DNA of 64,000 nt from Candidatus Omnitrophota bacterium (GTDB lineage Bacteria > Omnitrophota > Gorgyraeia > Gygaellales > Profunditerraquicolaceae). The stretch spans positions 598 to 64,597 of the forward strand of contig QNCD01000001.1 in NCBI GenBank assembly GCA_003644385.1, read 5' to 3'. The notes under the pieces were generated by a model. The model was given only the letters and a program-made list of their open reading frames with translations. It searched no databases and was not told where the DNA came from. Of this stretch, positions 4,038-40,458 are shown piece after piece. The position numbers and the translations under genes are program-made. Positions within the stretch are counted from its first letter, which is position 1; every line of letters begins with the position of its first letter.

Positions 4038-4898
4038 TTAGGCTCGGGGATGCGCTTTATTATAAATGCTTTTTAACCTCTCAGTAGTAAGGTGCGTATA
4101 AACCTGAGTGGTAGATAAATTCGCATGGCCTAGCAACTCTTGCACACTCCTTAAATCCGCTCCCCGGTTCAAAAGGTGGGTGGCAAAAGAATGCCTTAAG
4201 GTATGGCAGGAAACCCCCTGCCTGCCGCAAGCCAAGCGCAGATATTTTTTTACGATATTCCTTATACCCCTGTCGGAGATGCGGGTTTTATTTTTATTTA
4301 AGAATAATACCGGAGAATCCTTTTTCCTCTTATCCAGATAATCACGTATTGCCGAAAGGGCAATATCTCCAACAGGAACAATACGCTCTTTTTTGCCTTT
4401 ACCCGCCACCTTAACTATGCCGCCGATAAAATCTATATCATCGATATTTAACCCGGCGAGTTCGCTTACCCTTATTCCAGTGCTGTAAAATAGTTCTAAT
4501 ATTGCTTTATCGCGAAACCCCATCTCTTCTTTTGCTTTGACTGCCCCCAGTAAACGCAAAACCTCTTCCTCTGTCAAAAATAAAGGGAGATACCTTTCCT
4601 GCTTGGGGGTTAAAACGCTTAATATAGGATTATTCTTTAAAAAACCTTCGCGGGTTAAAAATTTGAAAAAAGACCTGAGCGTCGAAAGCCGGCGGGCAAC
4701 ACTCTTATTTTTAAGATTTTTTCTTTTCAATTGCGCCAGGTATTTCCTTAAGAGAAGGTAGTCTATTTTTTCTAAGGGTAGCTCTTTAAAAAAATTCATG
4801 AAATCTTCCAGATCTAAGCGGTAATTAAGTATAGTATGAGAGGAATAATTTTTTTCGATTTCTAAGTACCTGGCAAATTTTTCAATATATCTTTGCAT
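4038..4898 (-). CDS. xerC: Tyrosine recombinase XerC/XerD family
   Basis: C-terminal catalytic box HTLRHSFATHLL...LLGHANLSTTQVYTHL. It lies in the conserved dprA-topA-xerC (codV-like) arrangement. The XerC versus XerD assignment is tentative. Confidence 0.8.
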   Translation of the reverse strand: MQRYIEKFARYLEIEKNYSSHTILNYRLDLEDFMNFFKELPLEKIDYLLLRKYLAQLKRKNLKNKSVARRLSTLRSFFKFLTREGFLKNNPILSVLTPKQERYLPLFLTEEEVLRLLGAVKAKEEMGFRDKAILELFYSTGIRVSELAGLNIDDIDFIGGIVKVAGKGKKERIVPVGDIALSAIRDYLDKRKKDSPVLFLNKNKTRISDRGIRNIVKKYLRLACGRQGVSCHTLRHSFATHLLNRGADLRSVQELLGHANLSTTQVYTHLTTERLKSIYNKAHPRA

Positions 4899-16016: not shown

Positions 16017-17525
16017 TTATCGATCCTTGCTCTGTACTCGGTACTCCGTACTCCGTACTTTACTTATAATTTGCCTGGCTTTTAACAAAGCCTGCTTCTT
16101 CGTCTTAATCCTTCCTATTACCTGCAGTTCTTCTAATTCAGAAAGAACTTTGCCGATTAAAGGCGAAGGCTGGAGTTTAAATTTTTTGATTAAGTCATCG
16201 CCGTTAACCAGCCGCACTATTTTTTTCTCTTTCCTGCTCTTAAAATATTCTTTTAATAACTGGGCTATTACCTTCTCATGCTGCTCTCTAGAAAGGCGGG
16301 TGGTAAGCCTTCCCTTTGTGGCGCGCTGGTCAGCCAGCGATAATAAAAGCGTACTTATGGATTCTTCGGCTGCATCGCGGAAAAATCTGAATTTTGCCCG
16401 CGCCGTGAGCACTTCGTTATCCGCAAGATACCCCGGCCTTAAGTGCCATAATACCATCTTCTTTAAGGCCTCCAGCTCATCCTTTGATAACTTAAGGCGC
16501 TTGGCAATATTCTCGGTCATTTCAAGGCCGATCCTCTCGTGGCCGTGGAATTTAATCTTTCCTTCTTCTACGCGCCGCGCCTTGGGCTTGCCGATATCAT
16601 GCATTAATGCGCCTAATTTTATCAAGGCAGAACGTCTGCGTTCATAAGTAATCTCTTTATTCAAATAGCCGTTTAAGTCCTTATTATTTTTTAATTCTTC
16701 GAATACGTTCTCCAGCTGTTTTAAAGTCTCTAATGTATGCTGCCAGACATCAAGATGATGATACGGCCCCTGATTCACGCCCCGCATCACCTCGATTTCC
16801 GGAAAGATGTTCTTCAAAACATTTAATTTATCCATTTCAGAGAAATATTTAAAGGAATCTGGCTGGCTTAACATCTTAAAGAATTCATCGCGGATACGCT
16901 CACCTGAAACTCTGGAGAGATGTTTTGCTTTTGTCTTTATCAATTTTAAAGTCCTTTTCTCTATTTTGCAATGGAATACACAGGCTAAACTGAAAGCGCG
17001 TAAAATCCTTAAAGGGTCTTCGTCGAAGGCCCTGGGATTTACTATCCTGATTACTCTCTTGGCTAAATCTTTTCTGCCTCCATAAGGATCAATTAGCAAA
17101 TCAGGTATATCTAAGATTTTTCCCTTGCCTTTTGCTGAGTTTAATAACTTCTCTAAATCCAGCGCAATAGAATTAAGTGTAAAGTCGCGATGCAGTAAAT
17201 CTTTTTCTAAGGTTGCACCGCGAAAATCAGTAAAGTCTAAAGTATAAATTTTGTCTTTTGTCTTTTTTACTGCACGGCTACAACCATGGGCCTTATCCAA
17301 GATTACAAATCCGGCTTTTAAATGCCTGCTTACCACCCGCCCAAAAGCAATGGCATTTTTCTTCAGGCAAAAATCGATATCCGGATTCTCTTTTTCTCTT
17401 TTAAGGAAGATATCGCGCAGATACCCTCCCACCAGGTAGACTTTTAGCTTTCTTTTTTTCGCCAATTTCAATATCTCTTTGAGTATCTTCTGATCTTTTA
17501 AGCAGTCTTTAAAAGAGGGGTTCAT
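16017..17525 (-). CDS. cca: CCA-adding tRNA nucleotidyltransferase with HD domain
   Basis: Pol-beta-like head (VYLVGGYLRD...DIDF), a tRNA-NT body and a C-terminal HD motif (MHDIGK...HGHE). Confidence 0.8.
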   Translation of the reverse strand: MNPSFKDCLKDQKILKEILKLAKKRKLKVYLVGGYLRDIFLKREKENPDIDFCLKKNAIAFGRVVSRHLKAGFVILDKAHGCSRAVKKTKDKIYTLDFTDFRGATLEKDLLHRDFTLNSIALDLEKLLNSAKGKGKILDIPDLLIDPYGGRKDLAKRVIRIVNPRAFDEDPLRILRAFSLACVFHCKIEKRTLKLIKTKAKHLSRVSGERIRDEFFKMLSQPDSFKYFSEMDKLNVLKNIFPEIEVMRGVNQGPYHHLDVWQHTLETLKQLENVFEELKNNKDLNGYLNKEITYERRRSALIKLGALMHDIGKPKARRVEEGKIKFHGHERIGLEMTENIAKRLKLSKDELEALKKMVLWHLRPGYLADNEVLTARAKFRFFRDAAEESISTLLLSLADQRATKGRLTTRLSREQHEKVIAQLLKEYFKSRKEKKIVRLVNGDDLIKKFKLQPSPLIGKVLSELEELQVIGRIKTKKQALLKARQIISKVRSTEYRVQSKDR

Positions 17526-29938: not shown

Positions 29939-31237
29939 TTAACGGGATAAGCCGAGCCTGCTAAAAATTTTGTTTACGTGGCGTAGGTAATAGTCCAAAT
30001 CAAAAATCCTGTCTAATTCTTTTGGAGAAAGGCATCGGCAAAGTTGGTTATTTCTTAAAAGTAATTCTTTAAATTCGCGGTTCTCCCTCCAGGCCCGCAT
30101 CGCGTTTCTTTGCACTAAATCGTAGGCTTTCTGGCGGGTGAGGCCTTTTTTCATCAGCTTCAAAAGCAGTCTTTGCGAAAAAATCAGGCCTTTTGTTTTA
30201 ACTAAATTTGCCAGCATGTTATCAGGATATACGATTAACCCTTCAATAACCTCAATAAATTTATTCAGCATATAATCCAGGGCAAGTGTAGAATCCGGCA
30301 TGATTATCCGCTCAACCGAAGAGTGAGATATATCGCGTTCATGCCAGAGGGTAATGTTTTCTACTGCTGCCAAAGCATTTCCTCTTAAAACCCGGGCTAA
30401 CCCGCAGATCCTTTCGCAGATAACCGGATTACGCTTATGCGGCATAGCAGATGAACCCTTCTGGCTTTTGGCAAAAGGTTCTTCTGCCTCTAAAACCTCG
30501 GTCTTCTGTAAATGCCTGATTTCAGTGGCGAATTTTTCCAGGCTGGCACCGATTATAGCTAATGTGGCCATATATTGTGCATATACATCTCGTTGTATAA
30601 CCTGGGTAGAAATTCTAGCTGCCCTAAGCCCAAGCTTATCGCAGACGTACCTCTCCACTCTCGGGTTTATATTAGCATACGTACCTACTGCCCCGGAAAT
30701 CTTACCTATGCGGACCCCTTCTTTTGCCTGAAGAAGGCGGTTGAGGTTTCTTTTTGTTTCATCATACATCAAAGCAAGTTTTAATCCAAATGTGGTGGGT
30801 TCGGCGTGCACGCCATGGGTACGCCCAATGCAAACCATCTCTTTATATTTCTTGGATTTTCTAGCCAGTAAATTAATCAGCTTATTTAAATCCCCGATTA
30901 ATATTTCGCTTGCTGCTTTTAATTGCACCCCAAGCGTGGTATCCAGGAGATCCGAAGAAGTCAGGCCGATATGCAGGTATTTTGCGTCTGCCCCAATATA
31001 TTGTGCTACATTATTTACAAAAGACACCACATCATGTTGAGTTTTTTCTTCGATCTTTTTAATCTTATTTAGATTAAACTTTGCCTTTTTTTTAATTCGT
31101 ATTAAGATTTCCCTGGGGACCTCTTTTTCTTTTACCAGGGCTTCTAAGGCAAGTATTTCTATATCCAGCATGGTCTTAAACTTAAATTCCTCCTGCCAGA
31201 TATAGGACATTTTGGGTAGGCTGTAACGTTCAATCAT
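29939..31237 (-). CDS. purB: Adenylosuccinate lyase
   Basis: Lyase_1 fold with the signature GSSAMPHKRNP. Confidence 0.9.
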   Translation of the reverse strand: MIERYSLPKMSYIWQEEFKFKTMLDIEILALEALVKEKEVPREILIRIKKKAKFNLNKIKKIEEKTQHDVVSFVNNVAQYIGADAKYLHIGLTSSDLLDTTLGVQLKAASEILIGDLNKLINLLARKSKKYKEMVCIGRTHGVHAEPTTFGLKLALMYDETKRNLNRLLQAKEGVRIGKISGAVGTYANINPRVERYVCDKLGLRAARISTQVIQRDVYAQYMATLAIIGASLEKFATEIRHLQKTEVLEAEEPFAKSQKGSSAMPHKRNPVICERICGLARVLRGNALAAVENITLWHERDISHSSVERIIMPDSTLALDYMLNKFIEVIEGLIVYPDNMLANLVKTKGLIFSQRLLLKLMKKGLTRQKAYDLVQRNAMRAWRENREFKELLLRNNQLCRCLSPKELDRIFDLDYYLRHVNKIFSRLGLSR

Positions 31238-31411
31238 GCGTTCTCCTTAAAAAATTGCGGGGAGTCTTTATTATAACAAAAAATCTTGCTTTAGCAACCA
31301 AAAAATTAAGCCTGGAGAGCACCTGAATCATTTATAAAATATCCAAAAAGGGGGTTATACTATGGGGAATTTCGGGCAGGAAAATCGATTGATAAATAGC
31401 AAGCAAAATCA

Positions 31412-31798
31412 TCAACCTATAACAGCCTTTATCTCTTTTAAAAGCCTTTGTTTGGTCACCGGCTTCTGGATAAATTTGGCGCCGTTGATTGCCTTAAGAT
31501 TCCATAAATTATCCGGATTTAGAACGCTGACCACTATTATAGGCATATTGCGTGTTTCTTTAATTGACCTGACATAGACAAATAAAGAGTCGCCGGGGAC
31601 CGGTTCCATAATTATATCTAAAATCAAAAGGTCAAAAGTACCCTCTGCCAGGCGCTTTGTTGCTTCCTCAACCGAACCGACAATTTCAATTTTATACTTC
31701 TTTGCCTGGTCGCGAAAATAAATTTTATAGATATCCTGCATCTTTTTATCATCTTCGACGATTAAAATTTGTTTTACTCTTTTTTCTACTATAACCAT
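31412..31798 (-). CDS. Single-domain CheY-like response regulator
   Basis: ILIVEDD...LLILDIIMEP...K receiver residues; 128 aa; directly downstream of the sensor kinase. Confidence 0.8.
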   Translation of the reverse strand: MVIVEKRVKQILIVEDDKKMQDIYKIYFRDQAKKYKIEIVGSVEEATKRLAEGTFDLLILDIIMEPVPGDSLFVYVRSIKETRNMPIIVVSVLNPDNLWNLKAINGAKFIQKPVTKQRLLKEIKAVIG

Positions 31799-31826
31799 AT
31801 ACGCCTCCTGAGGATATGAGCACTTA

Positions 31827-34808
31827 TTATTTCAAAGGCAATTCTACGACCACGCTAGCGCCCTGGTCCTGGCCTCTAGAAAATAGTTTAATACTTCCTT
31901 TGTAACTATCAACGATTTCTTTACATATGGCTAACCCCACCCCTTCTCCTGCTATTGCCGGATGTTGTTTATAAAATTTAGTGAACAACTTATCCTTATC
32001 AATAGGACTAAATCCATAACCAGTATCTTTTACTGTTATACGTACTCGGTCCTGAATTCTGCGGCTGCTGATATATATACGGCCGTTTTCCGTAAATTTA
32101 ACTGCGTTCTCTATAAGGTTGCCTAAAAGAAAGCTTAAATCTCTTACAGCCATAATAACCTTATCAGCCCCTTTGCCGATATCTACCCTTATTATATTTT
32201 TTCTCGATTGAGTTAAATCGGCCAAATTAAGAACTATTTTCTTTACTACCTTCTCTAACGAAATCTTTCTTTTTCCTCTTTTCGTTAATTTTCTTAATTC
32301 CAGGGAAAAAACATCCATAATATTTTTGGTATCTTTTCCTAACTTATCCAGGCTGGTCTTGCCTATGGCGTATGCCTTCTTTATTAAATCCATATTATTT
32401 TCTGCTATTCCTTCCTGTAAAATCTGGTAAGACATCTGCGATAATGCCAGCGGCGTATTTAAACCATGTGAAATATTACGGATTAAATTTGCCTTTGCCT
32501 GTTCCAAGTGTTTAATTTCGCTAATATCCTCCAATATTCCGTCTATCCATTTGATTTGACCTTTTTTGTCGCGCTGTACCGAAGCTGAAATAGATACCCA
32601 GACTGGGCTGCCGTCTTTTTTTCGCAATTCTATCTCTAAATTCCTCACCGAACTTTTCTTAGCTATTTCTTCGACTACCTTCTTTCTTTGTTTAGGATCC
32701 GGATAAAGGTCAATAACCCGAACCCCCATAAATTCCTGAAGCGAATCATAACCGAAAATCTTGGCTATTGCCGAGTTTGCCTGCAGGAAACGCCCTTTAG
32801 TGCCGGGAGTATTCCTGTATATCCCGACTTTTATATTATTTACCACTGAACGGTATTTTTCTTCGCTTTGCCTTATGATTTCTTCAGCTTTTTTGCGTTC
32901 GGTAATATCTTCGGCAAAACCGGCTACGCGGAAAATCTGGCCTTTTTTATTCCTGATGGGATAGACACGCGCTGCCACCCAATGCAAAGAACCATCCGGA
33001 TGCACAACGCGAAAATCCGGAAAATTCTGTTCGGAAAAGTCTCCTTTTGCTAACCTATCTACACAGGCAATCAATTTTGGCCGATCTTCCTTTACTACTG
33101 CTTTTATCCATGCTTGAGGGTCTTTAAACATGGTCTGCCTGGAGCAGCCCCAGATTTTTTCATAAGCAGGGCTAAGATACAGCGGCTTTTTGTTTACTCC
33201 TTCACTTATCCAAAATGACTCCTTGATATTCTCAGCGACCTGTCTTAAACGCAATTCACTTTCCTTAAACGCTTCCTCTACCTGCTTACGCTGGGTAATA
33301 TCAAAAACTATTCCGTTAAAAACAACCCCGCCTCCCGGGAATTTACGGGGGGTAGAAGTAGCATACACCCATTTCAATTGCCCTGCTTTAGTCATTATCC
33401 TGAATTCTGCCTCGTATGGTTTAAGGGTTTTAAGTGATTTAATTATTAAATTATTCAATCCTATTTTATCTTCAGAAAGGATATTCTTAAAAGCCAGAGA
33501 ATGGTCTTTATAGAGCATTTGCGGGCGATTACCAAAAATCTTATAAGCATTATCGCTTACAAATAAGAATACGTGCTCACCGGTTTCTTTGACTAAAGTT
33601 TGATAAACCACTCCCGGGATCTTTGAAACTATCTCTTTAAATTTTTCTTCACTTGCTTTAAGCGCTAGCTCTGCCTCCTTACGCCTGGTAATATCTAAAT
33701 GCGTAGAAATACTATAAAGAGGCTTTCCGCCTAGTCCGTAAATAGTATTGACATTTAATAAAACATCGAGTATTTTCCCCTGTTTGGTAATGACCTGCAG
33801 CTCTTCATCCTTAATTTTATGTTTTTTCTTCCAAAGCCTGAAAAGCCTCTTTGCCTTTTTCTGTGAGGAGGAAGCATAAATAGTAATAAAAGATTTTCCT
33901 GCTAATTGCGATTTATCTTTATAGCCGAGAGTTTTAACAGCTAACTTATTGCAATCGATAATCTTACCGTCAAAAGAAATATTGTAAGCGCAGATTGGCA
34001 GATTCTCAAAATATTCCCTGAGCCTCAGCCGCTCTAACTTTAAAGCCTTTTCAATCTTCTTGCGTTCAGTAATATTTGTAACCCTGCCCTGGAATCCGAT
34101 AATTTTACCCTCCTCGCTGATTATCGGGCTGGCTACTGTTTCGCAATCTATAAGATGCCTGTCTTTATGGATATACTGCACCTCAACCTGGGCCTGGCGT
34201 ATTTTTCCCTTACGCGCTTCATAGAAAAGACCCCTAGCTGCTTTTTTTAATATCTTTATACTTGCTGGCGTAGCTATTTTATTTACGTTTACCCCCTCTA
34301 TCTCTTCTCTCTTATAACCCAATAGCCTAAATACAGCCTCATTAATAAATGTAATATTAAAATTAAGGTCAACGGTATATATAACATCTAAGGTGTTGGC
34401 TGCTAAAAGCCTGTATTTCTTTTCATTATCCCTCAAAAGCCTTTCTGTTTTTTTACGCTCGGTTATATCTGTACCTATAATTGCCAACCCATCTCCTACC
34501 CTAAAAGCCCGCAAAAAAGCGTGCCTTTCTCCGACCTCAGGACACAACACAGCGTTATCGATAATAAAAGGTTTGCCTGTTTTTAAAACCTGTTTATATC
34601 GTCTATATCTATATCGCACCTCTTTACTACCGGGACTGATAGATAATTCTAAAATGTGTTTTCCCAATGCAGATTGCTTGCGTAAATTCCATTGTTTCAA
34701 CGCAGCCCGGTTAATACCGATTAATTTCAAATTACGGTCAAAGAGAAGAAACCCGTCAGTTATTGAATTCATAAACTCGATTAACTTCTGGGGGTTTATA
34801 TCTTCCAT
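31827..34808 (-). CDS. Multi-PAS sensor histidine kinase
   Basis: About 7 PAS/PAC repeats (recurrent ...TDITERKK... linkers), then an H-box SHGLNTPL and an HATPase_c G-box (GVGLAICKEIV). Confidence 0.8.
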   Translation of the reverse strand: MEDINPQKLIEFMNSITDGFLLFDRNLKLIGINRAALKQWNLRKQSALGKHILELSISPGSKEVRYRYRRYKQVLKTGKPFIIDNAVLCPEVGERHAFLRAFRVGDGLAIIGTDITERKKTERLLRDNEKKYRLLAANTLDVIYTVDLNFNITFINEAVFRLLGYKREEIEGVNVNKIATPASIKILKKAARGLFYEARKGKIRQAQVEVQYIHKDRHLIDCETVASPIISEEGKIIGFQGRVTNITERKKIEKALKLERLRLREYFENLPICAYNISFDGKIIDCNKLAVKTLGYKDKSQLAGKSFITIYASSSQKKAKRLFRLWKKKHKIKDEELQVITKQGKILDVLLNVNTIYGLGGKPLYSISTHLDITRRKEAELALKASEEKFKEIVSKIPGVVYQTLVKETGEHVFLFVSDNAYKIFGNRPQMLYKDHSLAFKNILSEDKIGLNNLIIKSLKTLKPYEAEFRIMTKAGQLKWVYATSTPRKFPGGGVVFNGIVFDITQRKQVEEAFKESELRLRQVAENIKESFWISEGVNKKPLYLSPAYEKIWGCSRQTMFKDPQAWIKAVVKEDRPKLIACVDRLAKGDFSEQNFPDFRVVHPDGSLHWVAARVYPIRNKKGQIFRVAGFAEDITERKKAEEIIRQSEEKYRSVVNNIKVGIYRNTPGTKGRFLQANSAIAKIFGYDSLQEFMGVRVIDLYPDPKQRKKVVEEIAKKSSVRNLEIELRKKDGSPVWVSISASVQRDKKGQIKWIDGILEDISEIKHLEQAKANLIRNISHGLNTPLALSQMSYQILQEGIAENNMDLIKKAYAIGKTSLDKLGKDTKNIMDVFSLELRKLTKRGKRKISLEKVVKKIVLNLADLTQSRKNIIRVDIGKGADKVIMAVRDLSFLLGNLIENAVKFTENGRIYISSRRIQDRVRITVKDTGYGFSPIDKDKLFTKFYKQHPAIAGEGVGLAICKEIVDSYKGSIKLFSRGQDQGASVVVELPLK

Positions 34809-35033
34809 TTTTTTACTGGTAAAAAACTAATTAAATTATTATTCTTTTTTAAAGAAAAGTTGCGTTTTTTTGTATAAACAGGAGGAAGAAAAGAGACTAG
34901 TCTTAAATGAAAACTTTGGTAAATATTTATTTTAATACTAAAGAACAGGAAGTCAATAGAAATTACACATCCTAAGTGTGTAATTATCCAGGTTGTGCCT
35001 TAAGGTAATCTTAACCCTTTGCCGCGGAAGATC

Positions 35034-35501
35034 TTAGCAAGATTTTCCAGTGAAAGGATAAAAATTTTCGGGGAGAGATCTGACCTCTTGTAAATATTCC
35101 TCTTCTGTTTCAAGGCCGATATGCTCCCATTCAATCAGATTATCTTCTCTATCAAAAAAAAGATATATTTTTTCACCGCCCATCCAACCCTCCCCAGCCG
35201 CCTTATATACCCATTTTTCTTTTTCTTCTTCAGAAATAATCAAAGAGGGCTCACCGATATCTCTTAAAATATCCTCTTTAGAAAATCCGGTTTCTACTTC
35301 GTTTGCGGAAATGAAATTTTTAGCCTTTTCAAAATTTATAGTCTCCTGCCTCACTGCCTGCTCTTTTAACTTTTCATTTTTTGCCAGATTAGTTAATAAA
35401 GATAAAATGCGTGCCTTTGCGCAGCCAATTAAAGAAAGTATCAGAATAGGCAAAATGAAGTATTTTAATCTTGCGAAAATAATAAATTTTGTTTTATTCA
35501 T
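35034..35501 (-). CDS. Lipoprotein, possibly BamE/SmpA-OmlA-like
   Basis: Lipobox LIGC; the C-terminal KEDILRDIGEPS...WVYK...IYLFFDREDNLIEW resembles the BamE fold consensus. Confidence 0.4.
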   Translation of the reverse strand: MNKTKFIIFARLKYFILPILILSLIGCAKARILSLLTNLAKNEKLKEQAVRQETINFEKAKNFISANEVETGFSKEDILRDIGEPSLIISEEEKEKWVYKAAGEGWMGGEKIYLFFDREDNLIEWEHIGLETEEEYLQEVRSLPENFYPFTGKSC

Positions 35502-35566
35502 TTTGGCCTTGTCTTAACTTATTTATTATCAAGATGTTTAGCAATAGGGAAACGTCCCCATTGACT

Positions 35567-36318
35567 TTATAATATATGCATGCTTAGGGCGATTATTAAC
35601 ATTCCGGTTATAATTCCTAAAATCGACAAATGATATCCTCCGCCTTCGTAGGATAAAGGCAGGAGTTCATCAAAACTGATAAAAACCATCACGCCGGCAA
35701 CAGCAGCTAAGGTATAAGAAATAAACAAGCTATTTAGGAATGGCGTCAATAGCAATAAAGCTATAATTGCCCCAAGAGGTTCGGCGGATCCGGATAGAAA
35801 AGAATACCAAAAAGCCTTTTTTCTGCTTTTGCTGGCATAATAGATCGGTATTGCAACCGCAATCCTTTCAGGGATATTATGCAGCGCGATAGCAAAAGCT
35901 AAAGAAATACCTAGCTTTATATCTACCATTGAACTTATAAAAACTGCTATGCCTTCAGGAAAATTATGTATAGCCAGGCCTAGGGGCAGTATAAATTCCT
36001 GCTTTCATAATCCTGGAGTCGCAATCTTCTTTCTTGATATGCTCTTCTATATATTCGTGGGGAATAATAAAATCAAGAAGGCCGAGCAAAATAATTCCCC
36101 CAAAGAAAGCAATAACCGCCCTCAGGAAGCCGATCTCAGTTATAGCTGAAGGCAAAATATCCATGAAAGAAATAGAAATCATCACGCCGGCAGATAAACC
36201 CAAAGAAAACTGAAGATAAGTTTTTTTAAGATTCTTAACAAAAAAAAGCAAAGAAGCTGCCGACGTGGGTAAAAATACCCGCCAAAAAAGCCAGTAACAA
36301 AGGCAACCATATCTTCAT
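35567..36318 (-). pseudogene. zupT: ZIP-family zinc transporter ZupT, disrupted by two frameshifts
   Basis: Three consecutive frames encode, in order, MKIWLPLLLAFLAGIFTHVGSFFAFF, then VKNLKKTYLQFSLGLSAGVMISISFMD...PHEY, then LGLAIHNFPEGIAVF...ALHNIPERIAV, which aligns to ZupT. The first shift sits in an A8 tract (36240-36247); one fewer A restores the frame. The second lies near 36010-36020. Confidence 0.6.
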
Positions 36319-36470
36319 ACTTGGGGACGTTTCTATCATCTCTAACTCATTATAATAAAAAGAGTTATAACCGCCTCGGAATTATAACATTTTAACAAAT
36401 TTCACCACCTAAGCAATCGTAACTCTTTGTCATTCGGAGAGTAATTAAAACGAAGGGATCCTCTCTATAA

Positions 36471-36914
36471 TTATTGAACAGTCGATAAGCCTACGCAGGT
36501 ATCGTGAGAAGCAATTTCTCCACCCCCAAAAAGAGCTCTTATTACACCATCTTCGGTAATGCAAAAAGATTGTGAGCCATGATTAGCGCTTTTCGGTTCT
36601 GCAGAAATACAAAAACTGGAATCTGTGGCTTCCCTGATATAAAAATTATAGCCGGATTTACTTCCGCTGGCTAAAGTGCCGTCGATATATGGCGGCTGGG
36701 CTTCCGGTAAGCTTAAATTCGCAAGGTTTCCGTAGGTATAATTGGCGGTATTATAACAAATTTCTGCAGAGGCGATAATTTTCAATGACGCCTGGGCCGA
36801 GGTTTCATTAGCTTGCATGCGCGCTCTGAGTAAATTAGGTATAGCCAATGCCGCTAATAAAGCGACTACAGCAACCACAATCATCATTTCTACAAGAGTA
36901 AAACCTTTTTTCAT
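36471..36914 (-). CDS. Type IV pilin / pseudopilin (prepilin-type N-terminal methylation domain)
   Basis: MKKGFTLVEMMIVVAVVALLAALAIP, the class III signal peptide motif G-F-T-L-x-E. Confidence 0.75.
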   Translation of the reverse strand: MKKGFTLVEMMIVVAVVALLAALAIPNLLRARMQANETSAQASLKIIASAEICYNTANYTYGNLANLSLPEAQPPYIDGTLASGSKSGYNFYIREATDSSFCISAEPKSANHGSQSFCITEDGVIRALFGGGEIASHDTCVGLSTVQ

Positions 36915-37018
36915 CCTGTTTAGCCTTCCTCCATTTATATTTATTATAAATCAAACCTTGGCTTTTTCAACATATATAATCTTGAGGCGGATCCTTAAGT
37001 AAGAATCTCAGGCAGAAT

Positions 37019-38863
37019 TTATTCTCTTCTTCTTTCGGCAAGAAGAACCACATTCCTTAATTCTTCCTCTCCCTTTACACCCAGCCAATCTCTTTCAAAT
37101 TCAGGATTCTGGGCGATCTGGGCAATAGCGGCTAAGACTTTCAAATGCAGTTGGCGCTGATCAATAGATCCCACAAGCACAAATATGGTATGCACTATAT
37201 TATCATCGGGGAAAATTATCCCTTTTTTAGCCCTGAGTAAAAGAATCTCAAAAATATTCTCACCCTCAACCACAATATGGGGAATTGCCAGGCCTTTCTT
37301 TATTACTGTGTTTGCCTCCTTCTCCCGTTCAATAAATTTTCTAAATAAATTCTCGGGCGCTAAATTTAACTTCTTTCCTAACTTATCAGAAATCCGCCTG
37401 AAGAAATCTTCCATTTCTAAAATCTCTTCGATATCTAAAATATCGGATTGTTCGATAAGTTTATGAAATTTATCTTCAATAATTTCATCTCTCTGAATAA
37501 CGATATCTTTCAGCTCTGTCAGGAGATTATCCGATATTAATTCTTTATCCTTGGCCACTAGCCTTTCTAAAGCATATATTAAAGCAGAATCGCCAACCGC
37601 TCGTTTCTGGGCATAAAGCTTATACCAGGCAAACCCCGCTAAAATAAAAATAACCGTCAGAAAAACAATAAAGGTACCCATTTCAATTAAAAGAAAGGTT
37701 CCCCCCAGTATCCCTATGGTTTGCAAATATGGATAAAAAGGAGCGTAGAATTTTGGTCGGTAGCTGGAAATTCTGCTCGCCCTAAACAAAATAAGGGTAA
37801 AATTTGCAAAAATATAAAGCAGGATTAAGATACTGGAGGCAACCTTGACTAATAAATCCAGCTGTAAAAACATAATAACAGCTACCATAAATAAACCGGT
37901 AAATAAAATGGAAAGGTACGGCGTTTTAAACTTAGAGCTTATTCTTTGAAAAGCAGCGGGTAAAAGTTTATCTCTGCTCATACCCAGGGGATAGCGTGCC
38001 GCAGTCATAATTCCGGCATTAGCAGTAGAAATAAAAGCCAGAAATGCTCCGATGCTTATTATTATTCTTAAAATATCTCCGCCAATGGCTCCTGCTCCGT
38101 CAGATATAGGTATAAGGGTGCCCTTTAAACTTTCGGGATTTAACACGCCGACAGTTACATAAATGACTACAGCATAAAGACAGGAAGTAACCGCCAAGGA
38201 AAGAATCATCCCCAAAGGTAAGTTCCTTCCGGGATTTTTTACCTCTTCGGCTAAAGCAGCCACCTTAGTCAACCCGCCATAAGAAATAAAAACAAAGCTT
38301 GCCGTAGCAAACATCGCTCCGAGACCATTGGAGAAGAAAGGAGAAAAATTTATTGGTTTTGCTGCTTTTACCCCTAAGATAACATAACCTAAAAGCACTG
38401 CGATAAGCCCCAGGACTAAAATTACCTGGAATCTTCCTGCCTCTTTGACGCCGACCAAATTTAAAAAAATAAAAAACAGACAGCAAATAACAGCAATAAT
38501 ATTCAAAGGAAGATGGGTTATTATACTTAGATATGCACCCATACCAATGAGAGCAAAGGCGCCTTTTAAACTTAAAGAAAACCAAGTAGAAAAGCCGGCT
38601 ACAGTACCTAAGAGAGGGCCGAAACCCCTCATGATATAAAAATAATCCCCTCCGGCCTTAGGCATGGCAGTGGTCAATTCAGCCATGCTGAAAAGGGTAG
38701 GAAGACAGAATAATCCCGCTATGGAATAAGAAAGAATAACCGCCGGGCCCGCTTTAGCAAAAGCTATACCGGGCAAAATAAATAAACCGGAACTAATCAT
38801 CGCTCCGGTTGCCACGCAGAAAATATCCAAAAGATTAAGTTCTTTTTTTAAACTCTTTTCCAT
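37019..38863 (-). CDS. APC-family amino acid permease fused to a C-terminal PTS EIIA(Ntr)-type (PTS_EIIA_2) domain
   Basis: About 12 TM segments with APC blocks, then REKEANTVIKKGLAIPHIVVE...HTIFVLVGS, matching EIIA-2 with the phosphorylatable His in the G-x-A-I-P-H motif. Confidence 0.7.
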   Translation of the reverse strand: MEKSLKKELNLLDIFCVATGAMISSGLFILPGIAFAKAGPAVILSYSIAGLFCLPTLFSMAELTTAMPKAGGDYFYIMRGFGPLLGTVAGFSTWFSLSLKGAFALIGMGAYLSIITHLPLNIIAVICCLFFIFLNLVGVKEAGRFQVILVLGLIAVLLGYVILGVKAAKPINFSPFFSNGLGAMFATASFVFISYGGLTKVAALAEEVKNPGRNLPLGMILSLAVTSCLYAVVIYVTVGVLNPESLKGTLIPISDGAGAIGGDILRIIISIGAFLAFISTANAGIMTAARYPLGMSRDKLLPAAFQRISSKFKTPYLSILFTGLFMVAVIMFLQLDLLVKVASSILILLYIFANFTLILFRASRISSYRPKFYAPFYPYLQTIGILGGTFLLIEMGTFIVFLTVIFILAGFAWYKLYAQKRAVGDSALIYALERLVAKDKELISDNLLTELKDIVIQRDEIIEDKFHKLIEQSDILDIEEILEMEDFFRRISDKLGKKLNLAPENLFRKFIEREKEANTVIKKGLAIPHIVVEGENIFEILLLRAKKGIIFPDDNIVHTIFVLVGSIDQRQLHLKVLAAIAQIAQNPEFERDWLGVKGEEELRNVVLLAERRRE

Positions 38864-38940
38864 TTTGCTTATCTAAAATATGGCTTAATCTTTTCTACAT
38901 TTAGTCTTTCCTGATTATACCACTTTTATCATAAAATTGT

Positions 38941-38980
38941 AAATAAAACAAAAAGAGCCGCCAAAATTAATTGGCGGGCT
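38941..38980 (-). terminator. Rho-independent terminator (minus strand)
   Basis: On the minus strand, GCCCGCCAA-ttaatt-TTGGCGGC is followed by CTCTTTTTGTTTTATTT, immediately downstream of the tRNA-fragment repeat. Confidence 0.5.
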
Positions 38981-38986
38981 TATTGG

Positions 38987-39028
38987 TTGCGGGGAACGGA
39001 TTTGAACCGTTGACCTTTAGGTTATGAG
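38987..39028 (-). repeat. 42-bp exact duplicate of the 3' half of tRNA-fMet (distal att-like direct repeat)
   Basis: ttgcggggaacggatttgaaccgttgacctttaggttatgag is identical to 40268-40309. Confidence 0.85.
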
Positions 39029-39117
39029 GCTTAAAAACTCCGTCTTTTTAGAACTCCCTTTTAAGCCTCATCACCTCCTTTAGTCTATTGAAACTACTCC
39101 TTTACTTTGGAATAATT

Positions 39118-40170
39118 CTAATTTGTTAATTCCTTAAGGGTTTTTGACTTTTGTAAAATTAACTTACTTAAAATATTATTCCCTTCTGAAGTCAAATGAA
39201 CAGGATCAATAAAATATTTTTTAAAATCATTACTATCAAAATAGTTATGTAAATCGATAAATTCACAATTATATTTTTTTGCGATTTTATTTAAAATAAC
39301 GGGGATATTGCTATATTTATCGCTATAATCTTCGTAATTAGTTGTCATCTCTCCAAAATTTCTTGCCATTAAAACTTCTGGCATTAGAATAACTTTTATA
39401 TTTTTACTTACACTTAAGTCAACACAACTATCTATATTTTTATAAAATTCATTTTCTAGTTCTTTATATCTCACAGAGTTTCGCTCATAAGACTTAGTTT
39501 GATTAGATTGATTTATGAGGAATTTTTCTTTGAGTGTCACTAATAATAGGCTGTATCTTTCTAAGAAATTGTAAAAGGAGCCTAATTTAGCAGAAACAGT
39601 TGCATAAATTTTATTAACATCTTTTATAAATATGTCATTGTATCCACAGTAAAAAATGATTAATTTTGGAGAAATTTTTTCTAATATTCTCTTAAGAGGT
39701 TTATAATAGCTATCTGAAGACCTTCCGGCCATTCCCATATTTACAATAATATATTTTATATGGTTAGAGCTTGAAAGTGAACTATTAACCAGTTGATTAA
39801 GAAGATACGGATACCTATGCTCAGGCTCATTAAATACACCTGCAGTTGAAGAACCGCCAACACAAACTATATATTCATAATTCCTATTGTTTATATCGTA
39901 AGGTAATCGTAAATCATTAAATGCTTTATTTAAAAAAGTATCTACATCAATTTCAGAAATTTTTATATATTTATTATTTATATCTGATTTTTCACTATCC
40001 TTTCTTAACCCATAAAATAACCAAGCCCGATTTTTCTGTTTTATTGAGTAGCGTATTCTTTGCGTAACTTCAAGTGAAAGAAATATAATCAGAAGAGGTA
40101 TGAGTGAAAAAAGAGAATATTTAATTATTTTTCTAAGCGGAATCAGCATCTCCTTGACTTGATATAACAA
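39118..40170 (-). CDS. Membrane-anchored SGNH/GDSL-family hydrolase
   Basis: N-terminal TM segment; SGNH blocks IVCVGGSSTAG (I), NMGMAGRSS (II), FYCGYNDI (III), DPVHLTSEG (V, DxxH). Confidence 0.6.
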   Translation of the reverse strand: MLYQVKEMLIPLRKIIKYSLFSLIPLLIIFLSLEVTQRIRYSIKQKNRAWLFYGLRKDSEKSDINNKYIKISEIDVDTFLNKAFNDLRLPYDINNRNYEYIVCVGGSSTAGVFNEPEHRYPYLLNQLVNSSLSSSNHIKYIIVNMGMAGRSSDSYYKPLKRILEKISPKLIIFYCGYNDIFIKDVNKIYATVSAKLGSFYNFLERYSLLLVTLKEKFLINQSNQTKSYERNSVRYKELENEFYKNIDSCVDLSVSKNIKVILMPEVLMARNFGEMTTNYEDYSDKYSNIPVILNKIAKKYNCEFIDLHNYFDSNDFKKYFIDPVHLTSEGNNILSKLILQKSKTLKELTN

Positions 40171-40267
40171 AATCCTTTGATAAGTAATAATAGTGTGGTA
40201 GTAATTAATATATCTTTTTTCATATTATCCAATATCTTTTTAATTTTACTTCCTCTAAAATAAAAAA

Positions 40268-40341
40268 TTGCGGGGAACGGATTTGAACCGTTGACCTTTA
40301 GGTTATGAGCCTAACGAGCTACCAGACTGCTCCACCCCGCG
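40268..40341 (-). tRNA. tRNA-Met (CAU), initiator-type
   Basis: The sense sequence CGCGGGGTGGAGCAGTCTGGTAGCTCGTTAGGCTCATAACCTAAAGGTCAACGGTTCAAATCCGTTCCCCGCAA has a C1xA72 mismatch, A11:U24 and a CAU anticodon. It is near-identical to E. coli tRNA-fMet, although the anticodon stem has only 2 consecutive G-C pairs. Confidence 0.8.
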
Positions 40342-40458
40342 ATATCTTTTTGTAAGGTGGGATCCCGAAAGAAGTGAGGGACTCCACCCCGTGATTATTT
40401 ATATTCGAGTCACACTTTGTCACTTGTGACTTTGTGATCCATGCAATAAAGAACAATA

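Follow-up and report, generated by a model that had tools for sequence, protein, structure and literature searches.

A single-gene, integrase-less islet at the initiator tRNA gene of an Omnitrophota bacterium, probably the relic of an element integrated at the anticodon loop

When a genomic island depends on a tyrosine integrase that acts at the anticodon-loop sublocation of a tRNA gene, the element itself encodes this integrase, most often beside the tRNA. Such attachment (att) sites classically share an identity block that runs from the anticodon loop to the 3′ end of the tRNA. Here we analyze an islet at the initiator tRNA (tRNA-fMet) gene of an uncultured Omnitrophota bacterium, located in a 64,000-nt stretch of contig QNCD01000001.1 (hereafter the window, to which all coordinates refer unless another contig is named). 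The islet holds a single gene, for an SGNH/GDSL-type hydrolase. We conclude that this 1,281-bp unit is probably the relic of an element that was integrated into tRNA-fMet by tyrosine-integrase-type recombination at the anticodon loop, and is now non-autonomous.

Related arrangements have been described elsewhere. Cis-mobilizable elements (CIMEs) retain attL and attR, and have no recombination or transfer genes (2017, PMC5704250). They were defined in Firmicutes as elements that arose by decay from integrative and conjugative elements (ICEs) or integrative and mobilizable elements (IMEs), and are mobilized by accretion with an incoming ICE (PMC5704250). In Dehalococcoides, tandem, site-specifically mobilized genomic islands have been described at the single-copy ssrA (tmRNA) gene (PMC3146451).

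The tRNA gene, the repeated 3′ part and the DNA between the two copies are arranged as follows.

40268 to 40341, minus strand: intact initiator tRNA-Met(CAT) gene, in the proposed role of attL (ARAGORN; Rfam RF00005, 64.5 bits)
40268 to 40309, minus strand: proximal copy of a 42-nt direct repeat, from tRNA anticodon loop to discriminator
38987 to 39028, minus strand: distal copy of the 42-nt direct repeat, the putative attR and displaced 3′ part of the tRNA
38984 to 38986, minus strand: CCA, directly after the distal copy only (from the sequence)
38941 to 38980, minus strand: intrinsic terminator after the distal copy, stem 38958-38977 plus T-run (from sequence and fold)
39029 to 40267, minus strand: AT-rich insert between the repeat copies, 1,239 nt, 26.6% G+C

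The tRNA-Met(CAT) has the initiator signature of a C1:A72 mismatch, read from its sequence, and was the sole hit above threshold in an Rfam scan. A preliminary description of this DNA reported that the 3′ end of tRNA-fMet recurs exactly over 42 nt, and this holds. The copies are identical at 42/42 positions, lie on the same strand and start 1281 nt apart, and 0/100 dinucleotide-preserving shuffles gave such a match. Extension by three bases gives an identity of 44/45, with a mismatch only at the first base outside the repeat. On the 74-nt tRNA the repeat occupies nt 33-74, i.e. the first base of the anticodon loop through the discriminator. It takes in the anticodon loop, the 3′ strand of the anticodon stem, the variable loop and T-arm, and the 3′ strand of the acceptor stem with the discriminator. 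The integration geometry that had been proposed is thus borne out, with the repeat at the anticodon-loop sublocation.

The intact tRNA-fMet gene has neither an encoded CCA nor a terminator downstream, and the distal copy has both. The terminator stem is 7 bp, rich in G+C, and is followed by CTCTTTTTGT on the minus strand. The earlier suggestion that this is the displaced tRNA terminator fits what we see, since CCA and terminator are found at the distal copy only and relatives have a terminator after tRNA-fMet. By eye, a terminator-like hairpin plus T-run lies within ~150 nt after tRNA-fMet in six relatives (contigs L011, L012, L015, L016, L173 and L176), and within ~70 nt in all of these except L173. 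The register of the repeat is the one expected from the integration model, and other routes would hardly produce it. The model is matched because the identity runs from loop base 1 to the discriminator, CCA and terminator are at the distal side only and the insert has a foreign composition.

The junctions can be written out. attL is the tRNA 5′ half + 42-mer + TTTTTTATTTTAGAGG, and attR is TTTTAAGC + 42-mer + CCAATAAGCCCGCC. The predicted empty attB is then the tRNA 5′ half + 42-mer + CCAATAAGCCC, and the predicted circular attP is TTTTAAGC + 42-mer + TTTTTTATTTT.

Two further observations concern the tRNA sequence. A sub-threshold Rfam match to tmRNA covers the hairpin and the distal fragment (38984-39085, minus strand; 11.4 bits against a gathering score of 47), and probably merely mirrors the tRNA-like T-arm, acceptor and CCA of that fragment. 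The 10-mer CGGGGTGGAG, tRNA positions 3-12, recurs at 40381-40390 on the minus strand, ~40 nt upstream of the tRNA within a leader hairpin (40354-40395). It may be there by chance, or may be a relic 5′ tRNA fragment.

The segment between the repeats had been described as more AT-rich than its surroundings, and a sliding-window check agrees. Its G+C content is the lowest value of the 64-kb window, compared with 40.4 ± 2.8% for 1240-nt windows. The SGNH gene has 26.5% G+C overall and 19.8% at third codon positions (GC3), both at z ~ −4.9 relative to the 60 other open reading frames (ORFs) of the window. The coding content of the islet is one ORF, with non-coding flanks of 118 nt on the tRNA side and 89 nt on the distal side. 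The 118-nt spacer after the tRNA is AT-rich, opens with TTTTTTATTTT and has no hairpin. The distal flank contains an inverted repeat.

39118 to 40149, minus strand: SGNH/GDSL hydrolase gene, 343 aa from its ATG (Pfam, alignment, AlphaFold, Foldseek)
39019 to 39076, minus strand: 18-bp inverted repeat, arms 39076-39059 and 39036-39019 (fold z = −5.7)

The arms of the inverted repeat are 94% complementary and separated by a 22-nt loop, and the second arm extends 10 nt into the distal 42-nt copy. No further copy occurs elsewhere in the window. It is possibly a 3′ stabilizer or terminator of the cargo gene, or relic integrase-binding symmetry. Past the distal terminator, the downstream permease-EIIA gene is preceded by a strong promoter-like site, TTTACA-18-TGgTATAAT.

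Public assemblies bear on whether this arrangement is real. A SPAdes contig (L001) runs through both repeat copies, and two MEGAHIT k141 contigs cross one junction each (L002 on the tRNA side, L006 on the distal side). All are ~100% identical to the window, and the final k of MEGAHIT exceeds the length of the 42-nt repeat. Logan contigs (k=31) break at the tRNA and at the distal repeat. The possibility that the duplicated 42-mer is an assembly artefact, raised in the preliminary description, is answered by the SPAdes and MEGAHIT contigs that cross the copies. As an aside on these records, the contigs NODE_1734 and k141_232179 (L001 and L002) end in untrimmed Nextera adapter sequence, CTGTCTCTTATACACATCT..., and one of the adapter-tailed ends falls within the SGNH gene.

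The islet was said to carry a single membrane-anchored SGNH/GDSL gene, and Pfam hidden Markov model scores above the gathering scores, the motifs and the fold all concur. Gene callers use the ATG that gives 343 aa; an alternative TTG at 40170 would give 350 aa. The product matches Lipase_GDSL (PF00657; 2.3e-13, 51.2 bits, gathering cut-off 23.6) and Lipase_GDSL_2 (PF13472; 8e-12, 46.4 bits, gathering cut-off 32.9). The catalytic set is kept (G98-G99-S100, G139, N171-D172 and D315-x-x-H318) and is invariant across an 18-member family alignment. The N-terminus is a hydrophobic membrane-anchor segment, helical in the AlphaFold model, which has a predicted local distance difference test score of 79 and a predicted template modeling (TM) score of 0.77. 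The model comprises an SGNH core with a helical insertion of ~80 residues (170-248). The top 50 Foldseek matches in the PDB are nearly all SGNH/GDSL-type esterases, at E ~1e-8, and include Bacteroides acylhydrolases, acetyl-xylan esterases and TesA. A sequence search of the PDB gave no close match, and a search of NCBIfam gave no equivalog and no specific subfamily. The cargo is a genuine SGNH hydrolase of a small uncharacterized subfamily. Its relatives number 19 in 5.8 billion proteins; the best is an identical protein from an Omnitrophota metagenome-assembled genome (MAG), DRP74_00210, and the next is 69% identical.

The genomic contexts of the homologs hint at function. Homologs P0006 and P0009 adjoin genes for a carbamoyltransferase, SxtJ and DUF5989, and the neighborhood of P0009 additionally contains glycosyltransferases, an epimerase and a dTDP-sugar isomerase. 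Homolog P0002 adjoins SIS, radical-SAM and split transketolase genes. The closest homolog is also lower in G+C than its neighbors (24.7% versus 38.1%, contig L008), which fits a gene circulating in low-G+C glycan loci. The islet product is most likely an extracytoplasmic, N-terminally anchored SGNH esterase or acyltransferase, predicted to remove or transfer an acyl (or carbamoyl-related) group on a surface glycan. None of the contexts of the cargo homologs (L008-L010, L171 and L172) contained tRNA-fMet fragments.

The grouping of SGNH hydrolase, carbamoyltransferase (Carbam_trans_N/C), SxtJ and DUF5989 is itself a recurring cluster (L009:7834-11619 and L010:3556-7954). The cluster in L010 lies inside a glycan-biosynthesis locus; the cluster in L009 has isoprenoid, ferredoxin-oxidoreductase and tRNA-synthetase genes as its other neighbors. 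The grouping may represent a conserved, uncharacterized glycan-modification module.

The preliminary description noted the lack of an integrase. This is correct for the islet, in which we found no integrase or recombinase, the single ORF being the SGNH gene by Pfam; it does not extend to the window as a whole. We scanned for recombinases the 61 ORFs of at least 120 aa that are not nested in a longer ORF, using Pfam, with precomputed Pfam hits for the Rnf-to-enolase block. One was found.

4038 to 4898, minus strand: XerC, 286 aa, the sole Phage_integrase hit in the 64 kb (TIGR02224, 343 bits)

We assign this as XerC, the housekeeping enzyme of dimer resolution, because it scores above the NCBIfam equivalog cut-off and lies beside topA and dprA. 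The dprA-topA-xerC cluster is 35 kb from the islet.

An exact search for the 42-mer in 185,579 species genomes, JGI metagenomes and IMG/VR gave no match. Absence of this T-arm-specific sequence from the collections suggests that the att copy of the element matched this lineage specifically. Either the element was adapted to this lineage, or the repeat copies were homogenized later. The attR-side junction and the hairpin gave no match in an exact search of IMG/VR. A 25-mer of the T-arm and acceptor hit only two complete, unrelated viral tRNA-Met genes, each beside a tRNA-Pro.

According to the integration model, strand exchange by a tyrosine integrase would have taken place within the 7-nt anticodon loop, flanked by the two stem arms. 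A fresh 3′ portion of the tRNA, nt 33-74 but no CCA, would have come from the attP of the element, and the old 3′ part of the host, with its CCA and terminator, would have been displaced 1.28 kb downstream. The resulting gene would be a composite of a host 5′ part and an element 3′ part. The tRNA would stay functional, its CCA being provided by a CCA-adding enzyme. Two further features of the window are relevant here.

16017 to 17525, minus strand: CCA-adding tRNA nucleotidyltransferase-like gene (PolyA_pol head, HD and tRNA_NucTran2_2 domains)
40394 to 40423, minus strand: promoter-like site GTGACA-18-AATAAT upstream of the tRNA (consensus match only)

The nucleotidyltransferase-like gene matters because neither the reconstituted tRNA-fMet nor tRNA-Phe has an encoded CCA. 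Since attL and attR are kept and there is no recombinase, the unit cannot move by itself. As the tRNA and the cargo have no terminator between them, transcription from the tRNA promoter probably continues into the SGNH gene, and the tRNA-SGNH transcript would end at the displaced terminator. The promoter-like site upstream of the tRNA is a candidate to drive it.

We compared the locus with those of related genomes. The order fmt-orf275-FtsH-eno-DivIC-tRNA-fMet is conserved in Omnitrophota relatives found via enolase (73-78% identity), and the content downstream of tRNA-fMet is different in every one. Within 7 kb, these relatives have no SGNH gene, no permease gene and no 14-mer tRNA repeat. 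The nearest DivIC proteins are only 72% and 70% identical, on contigs L173/L175 and L176. There the order is tRNA-fMet, terminator, promoter, purB, purL, LOG, purF, with purB 78% and LOG 75% identical to those of the window. With the next-closest DivIC only 72% identical, no same-species genome is at hand for an empty-site comparison. The comparison of related loci envisaged at the outset thus yields relatives that lack the islet, but no same-species empty site. As a separate observation, two Omnitrophota MAGs have a tRNA-fMet gene split in the anticodon loop by an insert of ~240-260 nt (L176:7308-7650 and L011:8633-8960). The insert in L176 (7349-7542) matches the Rfam group I intron RF00028 (64.3 bits, E 4.8e-16), and ARAGORN misses both split genes.

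The start of purB in the window is at 31237, which places ~9 kb between it and the tRNA. Because tRNA-fMet abuts purB in the closest relatives, the islet is only the tRNA-proximal 1.3 kb of a longer lineage-specific segment.

31264 to 40260, minus strand: lineage-specific segment of ~9.0 kb, bounded by tRNA-fMet and purB and lacking in the closest relatives
40261 to 40276, minus strand: left copy of the exact 16-mer TCCCCGCAATTTTTTA, made up of the final 9 nt of the tRNA and the initial 7 nt of the islet
31248 to 31263, minus strand: right copy of the 16-mer TCCCCGCAATTTTTTA, in the purB 5′ untranslated region, 10 nt before the start codon
35567 to 36310, minus strand: ZIP/ZupT-like metal transporter gene over three reading frames (Pfam Zip on two fragments)

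The segment contains the islet, the permease-EIIA gene, a pilin-like gene, the broken ZIP transporter gene, orf155, a PAS histidine kinase and a response regulator. Only the islet combines a foreign composition with a clean repeat pair. The remaining 7.7 kb (31264-38986) is native-like in composition, and no repeats were found at its ends; its permease is fused to a phosphotransferase system EIIA-2 domain. The ZIP/ZupT-like gene may be a pseudogene; otherwise its frame is broken by indel errors shared identically by all public assemblies. The permease had been named as the neighbor of the islet. It does lie downstream, but this adjacency is not ancestral, the closest relatives having purB in that place. 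Permease orthologs occur at 80 metagenome loci, with up to 80% identity. A tRNA scan of 51 of these loci showed tRNA-fMet beside the permease in no case, and a comparison of the first 50 brought out no neighbor in common with the window, so the permease is not a stable neighbor. In these sequences the initiator tRNA gene shows up as a synteny break point and putative insertion hot spot in Omnitrophota.

The two copies of the 16-mer form a direct repeat, their similarity stops at the 16 nt, and the DNA that they enclose is precisely the 9 kb missing from the closest relatives. The sites, in the order tRNA, islet, 42-mer + CCA + terminator, 7.7 kb, 16-mer, purB, would suit an accretion array of three sites. 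The purB promoter region is conserved with relatives and lies upstream of the right 16-mer copy, which the accretion-array model does not predict. The 'original' terminator may belong to an earlier insertion. We also considered the permease promoter region as a duplicate of the purB promoter region that would mark the ends of an older 7.7-kb part, and rejected this as 213/500 shuffles score equally.

A number of these results, and some others, weigh against an integrated element that lost its integrase. The 16-nt repeat at 31248-31263 is unaccounted for by integration. No integrase pseudogene was found in the islet, and for something left by random decay the ORF is flanked by very clean DNA; these tidy flanks mildly favor an integrase that was never present over one that was lost. 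Searches of viral, plasmid, phage, genome and metagenome collections gave no parent element, excised circle or second copy, and no isogenic empty site was found in the collections searched. The idea in the preliminary description that the islet is mobilized in trans accordingly gains no support from these searches. tblastn of the cargo against phage records, plasmid records and IMG/VR found no relatives, and a sequence scan detected no promoter of its own for the SGNH gene. As all public assemblies with the locus are ~100% identical they represent one population, and so confirm the structure but provide no population contrast. The flanking proteins of the nearest relatives are only 70-78% identical to those of the window. 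Lastly, an encoded CCA follows tRNA-fMet in four relatives (L015, L016, L023 and L173) without being general in the phylum, and among the window's own tRNAs is present in tRNA-Thr and absent from tRNA-Phe. Given this variation the CCA argument is supportive, not decisive.

Could the unit instead be a minimal cassette that never had an integrase and is still mobile, moved in trans or in cis, in the manner of a satellite or CIME, by an integrase specific for tRNA-fMet whose gene lies elsewhere in the genome or arrives on another element? Both att copies are perfect over 42 nt though the distal one is free of tRNA selection, the unit is extremely compact with no pseudogene debris, the inverted repeat beside attR could be a protein-binding symmetry, and the locus, with its lineage-specific DNA and a third, partial att-like site in the 16-mer, resembles an accretion hot spot. 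Yet there is a single instance, with no second copy, circle junction or empty site in any collection, and this lack argues against an active cassette system. The homologs of the cargo belong to glycan loci of the chromosome, as ordinary genes with no tRNA fragments around them, and the 64 kb contain no island-type integrase. We consider such a cassette unlikely. A broader form of the idea makes tRNA-fMet an accretion platform for integrase-less single-gene cassettes, exchanged via an integrase encoded elsewhere, with the 42-nt pair and the 16-nt repeat as successive att sites; we regard this as very unlikely. Entry by homology is a different route to the same product. A foreign fragment, circular or linear, with the 3′ half of tRNA-fMet could have entered by RecA-dependent recombination; a single Campbell-type crossover between the chromosome and a circle, on 42 nt of homology, would yield an identical structure, as would import of an already occupied locus from a related strain by flanking homology, and perfect identity of the copies is expected from homologous recombination or gene conversion. 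However, the inner edge of the repeat would then fall at the first anticodon-loop base only by chance (~7 in 74 for the loop), and the incoming fragment would need the lineage-specific tRNA half, itself implying an att-bearing element. In addition, 42 nt is near the lower limit of efficient RecA recombination. Homology-driven entry therefore appears improbable.

The remaining readings dispense with insertion altogether. If tandem tRNA-fMet genes had flanked a resident gene and the downstream copy had lost its 5′ half, the distal fragment would be, as observed, a perfect 3′ part of a tRNA, followed by CCA and by a terminator of its own. That history would leave unexplained why the intervening gene is a ~4.9-standard-deviation compositional outlier, why the copies differ in CCA and terminator and why the truncation coincides exactly with the anticodon loop. 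A second tRNA-fMet copy or a tRNA 14-mer repeat within 7 kb is seen in none of the relatives, and upstream of 39028 there is no 5′-half remnant, with an unrelated hairpin there instead. On composition, relatives and the CCA/terminator asymmetry we reject the tandem duplication as highly improbable. The breaks in the Logan contigs would agree with a chimera joined through a tRNA k-mer that is conserved, or with a free circle that assembly had placed in the chromosomal path; with k below the repeat length, the de Bruijn graph does not distinguish an integrated copy from a free circle accompanied by an empty site. Judged on contigs, the SPAdes and MEGAHIT assemblies contradict this, and the flanks belong to one genome, with synteny to relatives on both the eno side and the purB side. 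An artefact is thus scarcely credible, and integration at the anticodon loop remains the explanation that we prefer.

As an integrated relic, the islet is an ordinary kind of genomic-island remnant, well documented, biologically sensible and unsurprising. For the phylum Omnitrophota, known almost exclusively as MAGs, it documents the horizontal gain of an enzyme that probably modifies a surface glycan. The islet is also a clean, att-flanked islet without an integrase, a type probably missed by island finders that are anchored on integrases. If it were a minimal unit mobile in trans, it would mark a lower size limit of tRNA-targeted integrative elements; if the accretion platform were real, the locus would be a tRNA-anchored functional analogue of an integron.

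How then does the islet compare with known systems? The resemblance to integron cassettes is by analogy only: a promoter-poor single ORF with an imperfect inverted repeat, mobilized, if at all, by an enzyme encoded elsewhere. The flanks differ, being tRNA sequence and not attC/attI. An integron cassette was rejected as an identification, as the hairpin at 39019-39076 lacks R″/R′ core motifs (RYYYAAC/GTTRRRY) by eye and there is no integron integrase nearby; the best NCBIfam integron integrase score in the window is that of XerC, far below the cut-off. The cargo shares the fold of SGNH/GDSL hydrolases that act on carbohydrates, namely acetyl-xylan esterases and the Bacteroides 'putative acylhydrolases' 4PPY, 4IYJ and 7DDY (E ~2e-8, target-normalized TM 0.7), together with the S, G, N and H blocks. 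It differs from them in having only 17-21% identity, an N-terminal anchor and the helical insertion, and in belonging to a small, distinct family (the 19 hits) with no NCBIfam equivalog.

The ssrA islands of Dehalococcoides reportedly carry their own integrases and direct repeats of the 3′ end of the gene. The Omnitrophota islet differs in the lack of an integrase and in having only one clean repeat pair. What it shares with them is a small-RNA gene used repeatedly as an integration hot spot that collects horizontal DNA. The likeness to CIMEs is one of structure, in an uncultured Omnitrophota host, and any ICE or IME ancestry, accretion partner with an integrase or mobilization would be hypothetical here. 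In structure it is close: the islet keeps attL and attR, has no integration or transfer genes and occupies a site that seemingly accumulates insertions, as in accretion arrays. The tRNA-integrated islands and prophages differ from the islet in their integrase or excisionase, of which it has no trace, and in its size of 1.3 kb with one cargo gene, and integration here is deduced from the scar. Apart from an integrase gene inside the element, the islet displays every structural hallmark of tRNA islands: an intact tRNA at one end and a repeat of its 3′ part at the other, the repeat running from the anticodon loop to the tRNA 3′ end, a foreign composition, and a displaced 3′ end together with its terminator.

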